Below, in pieces: positions 7,960 through 11,929 of a DNA stretch of 32,000 nt; the first letter of the stretch is position 1; every line of letters begins with the position of its first letter. Made by a program: the position numbers and the translations under genes. The DNA comes from an uncultured archaeon (GTDB lineage Archaea; Asgardarchaeota; Thorarchaeia; Thorarchaeales; CAZPUN01), in assembly GCA_964589775.1 (NCBI GenBank), contig CAZPUN010000027.1:1-32000 (forward strand), written 5' to 3'. Below the pieces are notes generated by a model. That model was not told where the DNA came from and searched no databases. It saw only the letters and a program-made list of their open reading frames with translations.

Positions 7960-8415
7960 TTAATGATGGTGCTCGCTCTTACTATGTCCTGCAACTGTTA
8001 ATTTAACAATTTCACAACCTGGCATACTTACAAAGCGTTTTGCCAAGCTTTTTACTTTTTCACTATCGCCTTCGATTGCAATTACCTCAAGGCATCGCTC
8101 GTGATCTATATGAATATGCATTGTTGCCCTAATTATGTCTAGAAAACTATGCTGTATATCATTGACTAAGTCTTGATTTTTCATTTTATGGTGGTTGTAT
8201 ATTAAGGTAATTGTCGCAAATACACGTCCTATCTGTTCGTCTATCCAGAGTTGTTCATTAATAAATTGGCGAATTGCATCACGAACAGCTTCTGATCTTT
8301 TTGTATATCCTTTCTTTCTATAAAATTCATCAAATTGCCTGAGCAAATCCGTTGGAATTGTAATACTTATTCGTTCGAGTTCTTTATCATCCAATTTTTT
8401 CCCAACCACATTCAT
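7960..8415 (-). CDS. nikR: Nickel-responsive regulator NikR
   Basis: Ribbon-helix-helix RISITIP..LL..FD....GY..RSEAVRDAIR, followed by the metal-binding domain YNHH, IQH, HIHIDHERCLEV. Confidence 0.93.
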   Translation of the reverse strand: MNVVGKKLDDKELERISITIPTDLLRQFDEFYRKKGYTKRSEAVRDAIRQFINEQLWIDEQIGRVFATITLIYNHHKMKNQDLVNDIQHSFLDIIRATMHIHIDHERCLEVIAIEGDSEKVKSLAKRFVSMPGCEIVKLTVAGHSKSEHHH

Positions 8416-8545
8416 TGATTTTCCATTTATGACGTATCTAATTAAATGTTATCATTCGCGGACTAGTATCTGAATTTAGAATCGTCAAAAGATTAAAAAA
8501 TCTTATCGCATTATAAAATTATTTATGTATAAGGGGGTGACTGTC

Positions 8546-9280
8546 ATGCAGATTGCAAATTTATTGGGAATTGCATTCGCTTGGTCTTTAATATTTCTAT
8601 TTATAATGCTAAATCTGGTAATTACACTTGGCAAATTAATGTCTGGTAAATTTACAAAATATCTAACAAAAACATTGGATGTAAAACTTCCTGAAGAAAC
8701 ATCACAAGCAAAACGGAGATCAAAAATATACACCATACAATGGATTCTCATAGGATCTATTATATCTTTGATTACTTTGTATGATTCTATTACGGGGAGT
8801 TTCATTATTTCTGTTGATACCTTGATTTCTGCGATTGTTGCGTTTATGACCTATCGAAGTGGTTCTAATTTAAGTTATCGCATTATCGCTTGGAAGCATG
8901 ACCTCAAGGTATTAGAAGCAAATACTGAAGACAGTTTGGTTTTAAAAATCGTATCAAAAGCTGCAAAGTTTGGAATCTCTATATCAGTACTTTTTGCAGT
9001 TGTGTGGTCTTTGTTCTATAAGTTGATTCGACTAAATATTAATCTTGTATTTAGTATGGATCCCTCTCTATTTACGCTTCTCGTCTGGGGTATTGGCATT
9101 TTAATAGGTCTGCCGTTCTCATTATATGTTATTCGATCTTTCCAAAGCATTGCGTTAAAAAGTGAAATCGGGCTAGTTTCATTTTTCCTAATTAAAGAAA
9201 AATATACTAGCGTTCAGAAAAAATCAGAAGAAACCGCAAGAAAAATCATGAGAAAAGCTGGAGATATGTTCGGAGTTTAA
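8546..9280 (+). CDS. Hypothetical multi-pass membrane protein
   Basis: About five hydrophobic segments. GGGGGTGA SD-like site precedes ATG 8546. Confidence 0.7.
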   Translation: MQIANLLGIAFAWSLIFLFIMLNLVITLGKLMSGKFTKYLTKTLDVKLPEETSQAKRRSKIYTIQWILIGSIISLITLYDSITGSFIISVDTLISAIVAFMTYRSGSNLSYRIIAWKHDLKVLEANTEDSLVLKIVSKAAKFGISISVLFAVVWSLFYKLIRLNINLVFSMDPSLFTLLVWGIGILIGLPFSLYVIRSFQSIALKSEIGLVSFFLIKEKYTSVQKKSEETARKIMRKAGDMFGV

Positions 9281-9418: not shown

Positions 9419-10078
9419 ATGATAATACTCATCGATATGGATGGTACAATTGTATATGCGCCTGAACGCAACCATATAGCTATTAAAAAGGCATTTGAAG
9501 ACTTAGGTTTTGATGTACCAATTGAAATAATCCGAGATAGGTTCAAATTTACAGAAGACCCAATTCATCGTATTAAGAGAATAATACCTGAAATTTCTGA
9601 TAAGACAGCTCTTGAAATTAGATATAAAATGTCTAATTATTTCTATGAATTATATAAAATGTCTAAACTAATCCCTGGTGCAAAACAAACTTTAGATGAA
9701 TTATCGCAAAATCATATTTTAATTCTTGTTACATCAAGAAGTAATCACAATTCGACTTTGAAAGAGCTTGAATATCTGGGTATAAAGCAATATTTCAACA
9801 AAATAATCACTGCAGGAATATTGTATGATCCGAAAACAAGCTTCCTTAGCGATTTCACAAAACAACGAATTCAATTACTCCGATATGCACTTGATGGTCA
9901 GAAGAATGAAAATGTCATGGTAATTGGTGACAGACGAAAAGAATTGGAAGCTGGAAAAATTTTAGGATATCCTACTGTTGGCGTACTTTCAGGTGTTGGA
10001 ACATTTGAGGAGTTAAAAGACGTTGCAACTTATATAATTGAATCTATAAAAAATTTGAATAATATTATTAAATTTTAA
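9419..10078 (+). CDS. HAD-superfamily hydrolase (phosphoglycolate phosphatase-like)
   Basis: Motif I DMDGT, LIPGA, motif II LVTS, and VIGDR..ELEAGK..G..TVGVLSG. Confidence 0.88.
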   Translation: MIILIDMDGTIVYAPERNHIAIKKAFEDLGFDVPIEIIRDRFKFTEDPIHRIKRIIPEISDKTALEIRYKMSNYFYELYKMSKLIPGAKQTLDELSQNHILILVTSRSNHNSTLKELEYLGIKQYFNKIITAGILYDPKTSFLSDFTKQRIQLLRYALDGQKNENVMVIGDRRKELEAGKILGYPTVGVLSGVGTFEELKDVATYIIESIKNLNNIIKF

Positions 10079-10155
10079 AAAATATTCGGCATATAATAAA
10101 TATTATATAACAGAATTTATAAATAAATTATTAAAAGTAAAACCCCAAGATGTAG

Positions 10156-10800
10156 GTGTTCAGTCTTATGTTCGGTAAAAAACCTTATGATTATAAAATA
10201 TATGTAGCAGGGCCTTTTCAAGCAGGAAAAACTACTTTAATTCATAAACTAGATCCTAAAGCACTTTCAATTGAAAAACCATTACGTGATGGTAGCGGAT
10301 CTACTACAACTGCATTTGATCTTGGTCATGTATTTTGGGTTAGACCTCGAGAAGAATCCCAAGGTTTAGTCATTAGTGAGCAAGAATTTGAAAAAGAAAA
10401 GGATCAATATAATGGATATATTGTATCTAAGGTCGAGCTAAAGGGCGGTCCCGGGCAAATTCATTTTAAGGCAGTCCGTGAAATGGTTATGAAAAATAGT
10501 GATGGTATCTTGTTTCTTGTTGATAGCTCCGACCCTATGTCTATTGGTCAAGCGAGTGCGCTTTTGGAAGAAGCAGTTCTGCATTTGGGAAAAGATATTC
10601 CTATTGTAGTGCTCGCAAACAAACAAGATTTGCCTGATGCTATGCCCGTAGAGACTGTGAAAACATTACTTGGGGATAGTGAAATTATTACAGATATCTT
10701 TCCCGCATCAGCTTTGAATAATGTAGGAATTAGTGATGCAATTTCATATCTATTAATGAAAATAAAAAAGCGTAAGGAATCTTTGTCAGGAGGGAATTAG
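10156..10800 (+). CDS. Small Ras-superfamily GTPase (MglA/Arf-like)
   Basis: G1 GPFQAGKTT, G2 STTTAFD, G3 GGPGQ (no Asp), GILFLVDS, G4 NKQD, G5 SAL. The start is GTG 10156 or ATG 10168. Confidence 0.9.
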   Translation: MFSLMFGKKPYDYKIYVAGPFQAGKTTLIHKLDPKALSIEKPLRDGSGSTTTAFDLGHVFWVRPREESQGLVISEQEFEKEKDQYNGYIVSKVELKGGPGQIHFKAVREMVMKNSDGILFLVDSSDPMSIGQASALLEEAVLHLGKDIPIVVLANKQDLPDAMPVETVKTLLGDSEIITDIFPASALNNVGISDAISYLLMKIKKRKESLSGGN

Positions 10801-10801
10801 T

Positions 10802-11233
10802 TTGAGCGAACTTAGTGAAATCGAAAAAATTATATCTTCTAGGCTTGCAGAACTTAAAAAATCAGTTCCTGTTTGGGCCTCGATTGTAGTTACAGAAGAT
10901 GGGCTTCCAATAGCCTATGATCTAGCTGAACATACGGATCTTACAACTATCAGTGCAATTATTTCTTCAGTTGTTTCAATTGCCGAACGTGGTGTTCAAG
11001 AATTAGTTCCAGATCAGCCTTTAAACCAAGTCATATTAAAAATTGGTGATGATCCAACTGGACAAACAATCATTATGGAAAAAATTTGGGAAAATGTAAT
11101 TATATTTGTTATATTTCCTACAGTGTCTAATCTTGGATTGGTTTTACTTGAATTAGAAAATGCAATTCGAGATATTATAGAAGTTATTAAATCAAATGTG
11201 GATGTTAAATTGCATCCTGAAACAGTATTATAA
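10802..11233 (+). CDS. Roadblock/LC7 domain protein
   Basis: Pattern SIVVTEDGLPIA...ISAIISS...AER...NLGLVLLEL. TTG start 1 nt after the GTPase stop, with a GGAGG SD-like site. Confidence 0.88.
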   Translation: MSELSEIEKIISSRLAELKKSVPVWASIVVTEDGLPIAYDLAEHTDLTTISAIISSVVSIAERGVQELVPDQPLNQVILKIGDDPTGQTIIMEKIWENVIIFVIFPTVSNLGLVLLELENAIRDIIEVIKSNVDVKLHPETVL

Positions 11234-11247
11234 GGAGGAAATCGACT

Positions 11248-11667
11248 ATGACCAAAGGTGGAACTCTAGCTAGATTAAATAGGTTTTTAGATAAACTAAT
11301 TGCTGAAACAAACTGCGAAGCTGCATTTATTTCAAATAAGAATGGATTAATAATGGCAAACAGATCAAAGACTGATATTGAAATCAGTCCCAAGGCAATT
11401 GCTGCAATGTCTTCTTTGATAAACGAATCAGGTGAGAAAACATACCGCCGATTAAATTTTGCAAAACCTGAAGTTTCAGCTATTTTCAGCAAAGAATTCA
11501 TTATAGATATAACAAACATCTATATTCGTGATGGAAAACAAGAAATTCTAGTTACTAAAGTAACACGTAACCATAATAATAAAAAAGGATTTTTCCGTCG
11601 TAAAAAAACTATCAAGCTTGGTATTTCCGATGCTTTAAAGAGGGAACTAGTTAGTCTATTTACATAG
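11248..11667 (+). CDS. Second, divergent Roadblock/LC7-like protein
   Basis: Pattern AAFISNKNGLIMA...AIAAMSSLI, AAGGAGG SD-like site, and a basic insert KKGFFRRKK. Confidence 0.75.
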   Translation: MTKGGTLARLNRFLDKLIAETNCEAAFISNKNGLIMANRSKTDIEISPKAIAAMSSLINESGEKTYRRLNFAKPEVSAIFSKEFIIDITNIYIRDGKQEILVTKVTRNHNNKKGFFRRKKTIKLGISDALKRELVSLFT

Positions 11668-11929
11668 CTTCCTCTAGTATTTTATCGATGTGGGATTTCC
11701 ATTCTGGTTTGAATTCAAGTGCTTTTTTGGCACACTCTATCGCTTTTTGTTTTTCTCCTAACTGTAAATGAGCTTTTGCTTTATAATACCAAGCTTTTCC
11801 AAAATCCGGTTTTAGTTTTATTGCATGCTCATAACATTCAATGGCGCGCTTATAATCGCCTTTTACCTCTGCGACTCTTCCTTCTTCAAACCAGTCGTAT
11901 GGTGTATAATATTCTTCATCGACAGACAT
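11660..11929 (-). CDS. Small TPR protein (about two repeats)
   Basis: AIECYEHAIKLKP and AWYYKAKAHLQLG. Its 3' end overlaps roadblock-2 by 8 nt (convergent). Confidence 0.85.
   Translation of the reverse strand: MSVDEEYYTPYDWFEEGRVAEVKGDYKRAIECYEHAIKLKPDFGKAWYYKAKAHLQLGEKQKAIECAKKALEFKPEWKSHIDKILEEAM

Follow-up and report, generated by a model that had tools for sequence, protein, structure and literature searches.

An MglA-type GTPase encoded with two roadblock proteins in a conserved operon of Asgard archaea

Introduction

MglA GTPases and the roadblock proteins that accompany them, the MglB proteins, are the closest described relatives of the system reported here. It has been shown that MglB, as a roadblock dimer, makes asymmetric contact with a single GTP-bound MglA and positions the catalytic residues (PMC3199381). 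In group 1 MglA, the first three positions of the G3 motif are T-V-P and G2 contains an intrinsic arginine, while groups 2-5 have GTPGQ in common and a threonine replaces the G2 arginine (Wuichet and Sogaard-Andersen, 2015; PMC4316618). Most MglA genes lie at most four genes away from an MglB/roadblock gene, some of them adjoining two, and an Asp-Gly pair is conserved in the MglBs coupled to GTPases of groups 2-5 (PMC4316618). Here, we describe an operon encoding a small GTPase followed by two roadblock proteins, designated g2 and g3, which is found in a stretch of 32,000 nucleotides (the window) from an uncultured archaeon of the order Thorarchaeales (contig CAZPUN010000027.1 of assembly GCA_964589775.1). 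The genome of this Asgard archaeon comprises 2.16 Mb in 64 contigs and is 96.75% complete.

The window system is of the MglA groups 2-5/MglB kind, all the testable defining features of which were found in it. On balance, the operon is likely to represent, in its minimal core form, an MglA/MglB-like G-protein module of Asgard archaea, in which a roadblock dimer would regulate the GTPase. The literature searched contains no description of this operon, of the interswitch insert of its GTPase or of the loop of g3 discussed below, and the GTPase clade appears there only as rows of a supplementary table.

A conserved operon of one GTPase and two roadblock genes

As read from the sequence, three co-oriented open reading frames (ORFs) on the plus strand encode the GTPase, roadblock 1 (g2) and roadblock 2 (g3). 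A previous interpretation of this DNA, made without database searches (the sequence-only reading), had described three tightly coupled genes with gaps of 1 nt and 14 nt. Both gaps proved exact on re-reading: the GTPase gene ends at TAG 10798-10800, g2 starts at TTG 10802 and stops at TAA 11231-11233, and g3 extends from ATG 11248 to 11667. A Shine-Dalgarno-like motif precedes each of the three starts (Table 1).

The same gene order recurs in other members of the phylum. In 29 independent Asgard loci, which were drawn from a sample of 301 genomes and excluded from the building of the g2 and g3 profiles, the ORF following the GTPase best matches the g2 profile and the next one the g3 profile, on the same strand, without exception (29/29). 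These relatives carry cassettes of three to four roadblocks, 26 of the 29 loci having a third one immediately 5' of the GTPase, about 13 an additional one after g3 and at least 10 a gene of ~155 codons further upstream. The upstream genes are missing both at the window locus and in its close relative L001, and orthologs of them are found unlinked on two other contigs of the genome (C23 and C34); the window operon is thus a cassette reduced to its invariant three-gene core.

Assignment of the GTPase to MglA groups 2-5

The GTPase contains the motifs GPFQAGKT (G1), the invariant threonines T46 and T47 (G2), GGPGQ within KGGPGQ (G3) and NKQD (G4). The Walker-B aspartate is absent from G3 of this protein and of every family member aligned, the family motif being G[GSVTAC]PGQ with Gly, Ser, Val, Ala, Cys or Thr as its second residue. 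T46 and T47, which are invariant in 27 sequences, were equated with R53 and T54 of MglA by motif register (an aromatic residue at T+3 and an Asp at T+4), which places a threonine at the Arg-finger position of MglA. The signature of groups 2-5 is hence found in three respects: a G3 motif devoid of the Walker-B Asp, although its second residue is Gly instead of the consensus Thr, a threonine in place of the intrinsic Arg finger, and coupling to roadblock genes, two of which lie directly downstream. The sequence-only reading had already called the protein MglA-type from its Asp-less GGPGQ motif; this motif is confirmed, and Table S3 of Vargova et al. (bioRxiv 10.1101/2024.02.28.582541) enters as 'MglA2-5', on the basis of a tree, an ortholog from the Helarchaeota genome Hel_GB_B (P0004, 57% identical) whose contig is that of locus L003.

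The NCBI name 'ADP-ribosylation factor-like' had suggested the Asgard-only ArfL group. This candidate was rejected, as the ArfL entries of the same Table S3 carry WDxGGQ (bioRxiv 10.1101/2024.02.28.582541) and the ortholog is listed as MglA2-5.

A profile search with the GTPase covered 1.84 billion representatives. Among the best 150 matches, 116 had readable motifs, 102 of these being G.PG (86 GTPGQ) and four DxxG. In a quick maximum-likelihood tree rooted on the DxxG GTPases of its own genome, the window GTPase falls in a clade with a support of 99, inside the G.PG group. This group is itself split at 99 from the DxxG GTPases, and the clade stands apart from two TVAGQ (group-1-like) paralogs. 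The tree contains no named references.

The AlphaFold2 (AF2) model of the GTPase, built from a 27-row alignment, consists of a single G domain (predicted local distance difference test score, pLDDT, 90.5; predicted template modelling score, pTM, 0.88). In structural comparison it comes closest to MglA in complex with MglB (3t12; Z 21.2, root-mean-square deviation 2.1, 160 aligned residues, 28% identity), and MglA from Thermus thermophilus also ranks first in a single-sequence search of the PDB (8.4e-13). Pfam returned Arf, Ras and GTP_EFTU matches, the Arf model covering residues 100-201 at 54 bits, and the NCBIfam search returned the generic small_GTP domain only. As judged from its motifs, its tree position and its gene context, and not from global likeness, the GTPase is of the MglA groups 2-5 type.

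The interswitch insert and the distribution of the clade

The spacing between the P-loop and G3 is 78-90 residues in the clade, versus 45-59 in 87 of the 102 related G.PG GTPases. The extra 25-35 residues lie between β2 and β3, where AF2 predicts with high confidence a lengthened hairpin with one extra strand and two short helices. W57, R59, G66 and Y81 are conserved positions of this insert. The loop between β2 and β3 of MglA is also extra, but disordered (PMC3199381).

The clade is small (16 clusters at E<1e-30 among the 1.84 billion representatives), restricted to Asgard archaea and patchy within the phylum, with a match in 50 of the 301 sampled genomes and in 21 of the 90 high-quality ones. 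The window GTPase shares 52-57% identity with orthologs of Hel and Loki type, more than the 44-50% seen with Thor-type ones from its own order (loci L021-L049 for comparison), and some genomes of this order possess two to four GTPase paralogs. The closer match outside the order could reflect old paralogy or transfer.

The two roadblock proteins

The sequence-only reading had proposed a pair of roadblock proteins, and this part of it holds for both genes, g2 being recognized by Pfam and g3 by profile comparison and predicted fold. g2 matches Robl_LC7 (PF03259) at 29.0 bits, above the gathering cut-off of 23. Its T..DG motif is invariant in 32 orthologs and its C-terminal tail of the KLHxET type is conserved; the DG pair is the feature published for the MglBs of groups 2-5.

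No Pfam match passing the cut-off was obtained with the g3 protein of the window, and a weak Profilin hit (E 0.022) was taken as noise. The syntenic ortholog of g3 at locus L007, on the other hand, matches Robl_LC7 at 26 bits (cut-off 23), and the g3 family profile reaches an hhalign probability of 97.2% against a roadblock family. Against the PDB, this profile retrieves the Roadblock entry 9jue (E 1.3e-6), as well as dynein LC7 and MglB. The AF2 model of g3 (pLDDT 84.2, pTM 0.80) has the order α-β-β-α-β-β-β-α, and Foldseek places MglB of Myxococcus xanthus and T. thermophilus on top (6hjm, E 3e-8; TM 0.68/0.75), followed by Ragulator p14/MP1 (LAMTOR2/3) and MK-D1 roadblocks. Collectively, profiles and model identify g3 as a divergent roadblock. 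It is also fast-evolving: a word-indexed homolog search retrieved only g3 itself and one close relative, and its orthologs were gathered by synteny. Divergence between the two roadblocks is strong as well, with an hhalign probability of only 75.7% for g2 against g3.

Between its last strand and its last helix, g3 has a loop, the residues 111-119 of which have a pLDDT below 50 and are predicted to be disordered. A basic-aromatic-basic pattern is found at this place in about 30 g3 orthologs despite poor conservation elsewhere in the protein. This loop could be a membrane anchor, an Arg finger acting in trans or a nucleic-acid contact.

The g2 and g3 subfamilies are without a solved structure. 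In the closed Loki-type genome G213, none of the cassette roadblocks is identical to the solved MK-D1 roadblocks; the best match was obtained with the upstream one (E 2e-11), and the g2- and g3-type genes gave no match.

Proposed mechanism and alternatives

A mechanism can be proposed for this module. One leadered mRNA, with its Shine-Dalgarno-like sites and near-abutting frames, would deliver the three proteins in matched amounts. Alone, the GTPase is expected to hydrolyze GTP poorly, as it possesses the catalytic Gln97 but neither the Walker-B Asp nor an intrinsic Arg finger. The two roadblocks would assemble into a dimeric platform, probably a heterodimer, a g2-g3 pairing being plausible. 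Such a platform would attach to the switch/interswitch face of the GTPase in its GTP-bound form, in the way that MglB dimers bind MglA, and would set the nucleotide state of the GTPase through GTPase-activating protein (GAP) activity, possibly with exchange activity in addition. Since an intrinsic Arg finger is lacking, catalysis would need either pure repositioning or a residue supplied in trans, for which the Arg-rich loop of g3 is one candidate. The same polybasic-aromatic loop is likely a better candidate for contacting a membrane or a partner than the N-terminus of the GTPase and, because the GTPase has no such element, it is the most plausible membrane-contact element of the system. The analysis itself shows the structure of the genes, their family assignments, the folds and the conserved synteny; we infer the binding, the stoichiometry, the GAP role and the function of the loop by analogy with described systems.

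The three-chain complex prediction which the sequence-only reading had suggested for the trio, run as the GTPase versus g2 plus g3, gave a score of 0.34, the best of three controls scoring 0.00. The runs showed a contact agreement of at least 85% and a partner pLDDT of at least 84. Of 80 solved complexes, 58 attain the pass mark for this score, as do 2 of 110 mismatched pairs; passing scores at or below 0.60 were obtained for only 7 of the 80 solved complexes and for both passing mismatches. The result was rated as weak support, and the prediction gives no interface.

Several points speak against the proposed module. First, overall similarity is indecisive for the GTPase. Structural matches to Arf and Arl reach Z 20.4-20.9, tied within 1 with MglA, so that the fold search does not separate MglA from Arf; in addition, the family-profile search of the PDB ranks Asgard ArfR (8oun, 1e-20) and Arf1 (1e-16) over MglA (1e-13), a likeness to ArfR/Arf which stems from the C-terminal half. 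This leaves motifs, tree position and gene context as the basis of the assignment, and the tree itself is made of unnamed representatives without bona fide Arf or Rag references. Second, the complex score is weak and comes without an interface, and its pass may reflect memory, MglA-MglB complexes being among the solved structures. Third, the solved MK-D1 roadblocks are deposited as homodimers according to their deposition titles. Finally, the partner set may be larger than g2 and g3, because relatives carry one or two more roadblock genes and the genome itself contains an unlinked ortholog of the upstream type.

The strongest alternative, although we regard it as unlikely, is that the two roadblocks form separate homodimers with different jobs, one being for example the GAP and the other an adaptor, an exchange factor or an inhibitor. 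Such an organization would recall that of Myxococcus, where MglB has the roadblock paralog MglC. It is consistent with the extent of divergence between g2 and g3, with their distinct conserved features (the DG pair and the C-terminal tail in one, the polybasic loop in the other), with the homodimeric Asgard depositions and with the three to four roadblocks of the relatives' cassettes. However, strict adjacency and near-abutting frames in 29/29 loci suggest the equimolar synthesis of partners, and the asymmetric contact of the MglB dimer with MglA (PMC3199381) is an arrangement favouring specialised heterodimers.

Somewhat less likely again, the roadblock pair could function mainly as a Ragulator-like scaffold or anchor and not as a GAP, with the polybasic-aromatic loop of g3 keeping the GTPase at the membrane. 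The occurrence of this loop in ~30 orthologs, the fold match of g3 to p14/MP1 and a GTPase devoid of any membrane-binding element of its own are in line with this possibility. Against it, contact with the active site or with nucleic acid would be an equally possible role for an Arg-rich loop, the window encodes no wrapping subunit of the LAMTOR1 type and, unlike Rags, the GTPase has no C-terminal roadblock domain.

A bolder extension, which we consider improbable, would see in the triad the unvarying centre of a multi-roadblock cassette present throughout Asgard archaea, working as a lipid-anchor-free 'mini-Ragulator'. The heterodimer would tether the GTPase via the g3 loop and read or set its nucleotide state via the interswitch insert, representing a prokaryotic stage toward the heteromeric roadblock platforms of eukaryotes.

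Start codon and N-terminus of the GTPase

The remaining alternative is an Arf-like membrane-targeted switch, in which an N-terminal amphipathic helix (MFSLMFGKK...) would be released on GTP binding. It originates from the sequence-only reading, which had translated the GTPase from GTG 10156 and likened its N-terminus to the membrane-binding helix of Arf1. The start is more likely ATG 10168, as GTG 10156 lies inside the conserved ribosome-binding motif AGGTG 10154-10158, directly 3' of the in-frame stop TAG 10153-10155. The 9 nt between AGGTG and ATG 10168 equal the spacing between GGAGG and the ATG of g3, the corresponding distance to the TTG of g2 being 8 nt. The ortholog at L001 (87% protein identity) retains AGGTG, the ATG and the 9 nt separating them, whereas the three codons that link GTG to ATG read FSL in the window and YQS in L001. 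In fact, when both DNA sequences are aligned, the 8 bases after AGGTGT are almost wholly different and the sequences become near-identical from the ATG on. The 210-residue ATG form is also the version present in the protein collection, as chosen by its gene callers.

Arf1 has about 23 residues before the P-loop Gly. Across 35 loci orthologous to the window, the likely start lies 13-17 residues before this glycine, and a stop codon leaves just 14-21 open codons in at least 12 of the ortholog loci. The N-termini of the orthologs consist of 5-9 mostly basic residues before strand β1, with no common hydrophobic face, and in the AF2 model residues 1-8 are coil, β1 beginning at residue 9. Furthermore, the column 'Predicted N-term AH' (amphipathic helix) is blank for the 57% identical ortholog in Table S3 of bioRxiv 10.1101/2024.02.28.582541. 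Together with the start at ATG 10168, these data leave the Arf-like N-terminal helix not supported. The sequence-only reading had itself held that a start at this ATG and an unconserved N-terminus would speak against it, and both are what is found as far as sequence can show; its description of the system as 'intermediate between MglAB and Arf/Rag' loses its support together with the helix.

Despite a literal FGKK-plus-P-loop likeness to Arf1/Arf5, of which the HMMER N-terminal match to Arf5 is insignificant (independent E-value 12), the Arf match of Pfam, an Arf-like G4 motif (NKQD) and the highest PDB profile similarity being to Asgard ArfR, the Arf-like switch is very hard to sustain in view of this N-terminus and of a G3 motif without the Asp of WDxGGQ.

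Comparison with described systems

Compared with MglA groups 2-5 and their coupled MglB proteins (PMC4316618; bioRxiv 10.1101/2024.02.28.582541), the window system shares G-x-P-G-Q without Asp, Thr in place of the Arg finger, roadblock neighbours and the DG pair of the roadblock. Two MglB genes accompanying one MglA are a known arrangement, and the 57% identical ortholog is already listed in the group. It differs by the second residue of G3, which is Gly, Ser or Val instead of Thr, by the structured 25-35-residue interswitch insert, by two roadblocks that belong to distinct conserved subfamilies, the second one having the polybasic-aromatic loop, and by the confinement of its clade to Asgard archaea.

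The group 1 MglA-MglB pairs of M. xanthus and T. thermophilus (3t12, 6izw) rank first in the structural comparisons of both the GTPase and g3. They likewise combine a single-domain GTPase lacking the Walker-B Asp with roadblock partners, and their known 1:2 stoichiometry fits a 1:1:1 trio. In contrast, group 1 MglA has TVPGQ and the intrinsic Arg53 finger where the window GTPase has GGPGQ and Thr; MglB is the homodimeric product of one gene, replaced here by two different genes, and no Frz or RomR partners are found.

Three further families were considered and rejected. Actinobacterial conservons (CvnA-D; MglA group 2) also contain an MglA-type GTPase in an operon with a roadblock protein, but neither a CvnA-like sensor kinase nor a CvnC (DUF742) gene is present in or next to the window operon. 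The Arf family (Arf/Arl/Sar/ArfR), including Asgard ArfR (8oul, 8oun), resembles the GTPase in its C-terminal half with NKQD, in having the highest PDB profile score and in its fold (Z ~20); the window protein lacks the N-terminal amphipathic helix and the WDxGGQ Asp, and is coupled to roadblock genes. In the Rag/Ragulator system, roadblock dimers also serve as GTPase platforms and p14/MP1 (LAMTOR2/3) match the fold of g3, but Rags dimerise via their own C-terminal roadblock domain and Ragulator needs lipidated LAMTOR1, whereas the window GTPase is a single G domain of 210 residues with no fused roadblock domain and the operon contains no LAMTOR1-like anchor gene.

Genomic surroundings and related genes

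The coordinates of the operon features are given in Table 1. The region is AT-rich, with a local G+C content of ~33%. The upstream neighbour is a gene for a HAD-type hydrolase (9419-10078) and the downstream one a convergent TPR gene on the minus strand (11660-11929). The latter encodes 89 residues with two TPR repeats, overlaps the end of g3 by 8 nt and is also present in the close relative L001. Two genes farther upstream are likewise found upstream in L001: that of a NikR-type nickel-responsive regulator (7960-8415, minus strand; NikR_C at 88 bits) and, adjoining it, that of a multi-pass membrane protein of 251 residues (8525-9280, plus strand), for which only a weak SLATT_1 hint was obtained.

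Table 1. Features of the GTPase-roadblock operon, in window coordinates.
Feature	Position	Strand	Basis or remark
AGGTG, Shine-Dalgarno-like	10154-10158	+	9 nt 5' of GTPase ATG 10168; includes GTG 10156; motif and spacing kept in ortholog L001 (87%)
Small GTPase, 210 residues, MglA groups 2-5 type	10168-10800	+	Pfam, family alignment, AF2 model, structural match to MglA, ortholog listed as MglA2-5
G1, GPFQAGKT	10210-10233	+	
Interswitch insert, GTPase residues ~58-84, between β2 and β3	10339-10419	+	Predicted secondary structure, P-loop-to-G3 spacing
G3, GGPGQ	10444-10458	+	
G4, NKQD	10618-10629	+	
GGAGG	10789-10793	+	Within the end of the GTPase gene; 8 nt before g2 TTG; translational coupling
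Roadblock 1 (g2), 143 residues, MglB-like	10802-11233	+	Pfam Robl_LC7, ortholog alignments, synteny
GGAGG	11234-11238	+	9 nt before g3 ATG
Roadblock 2 (g3), 139 residues, divergent roadblock/LC7 fold with C-terminal helix	11248-11667	+	Profiles, AF2, Foldseek
Polybasic-aromatic loop of g3, residues 105-126 (around KKGFFRRKK), between β5 and last helix	11560-11625	+	Low pLDDT, pattern in ~30 orthologs

The full row of cassette genes is seen at L051 3283-6631 of G213, whose genome measures 4.36 Mb: the ~155-residue gene, a roadblock, the GTPase, two g2-type roadblocks and a long g3-type roadblock. In the genome of the window, the best ortholog of the upstream roadblock (E 1e-35) lies on contig C23 (L010 1498-1860, minus strand), alone beside a Cys-rich gene of 130 residues; its product may be a third partner of the window GTPase, encoded at an unlinked site. 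The ortholog of the ~155-residue gene is located on contig C34 (L018 1498-1959), unlinked from the GTPase operon, and lies 5 nt ahead of a four-Cys ORF of 43 codons (CxxC...C...C; 1965-2096), which matches a 42-codon ORF at L003 3442-3570. By eye, the ~155-residue protein appeared V4R-like, a candidate rejected at an hhalign probability of 0.1% against a V4R protein from L005; Pfam returned nothing for it and the PDB profile search only an unconvincing match to RFC3 (E 0.008).

At least three of the ~20 small GTPases of this genome adjoin roadblock genes. On contig C57 (~40365-42733), a TVAGQ (MglA group-1-like) GTPase (40752-41363, minus strand) is flanked by four roadblock-like ORFs, and the gene of a DLAGQ GTPase of contig C21 (38378-38986) has a roadblock-like ORF (38967-39443) directly after it.

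Significance

Asgard archaea encode many small GTPases and many roadblock/longin proteins. According to Tran et al. (PMC10933270), the GTPase genes of MK-D1 generally do not share operons with roadblock genes, and partners are for this reason hard to predict from genome layout. The window operon is an exception, its order being kept across Thor-, Hel- and Loki-type genomes, and for a single, specific GTPase it points to two particular roadblock proteins as likely partners. The tempting connection with Arf is corrected as wrong, and the value of the locus lies in these testable partners. With three small soluble proteins, it offers a compact, testable system for the regulation of an archaeal MglA-type switch devoid of an intrinsic Arg finger.

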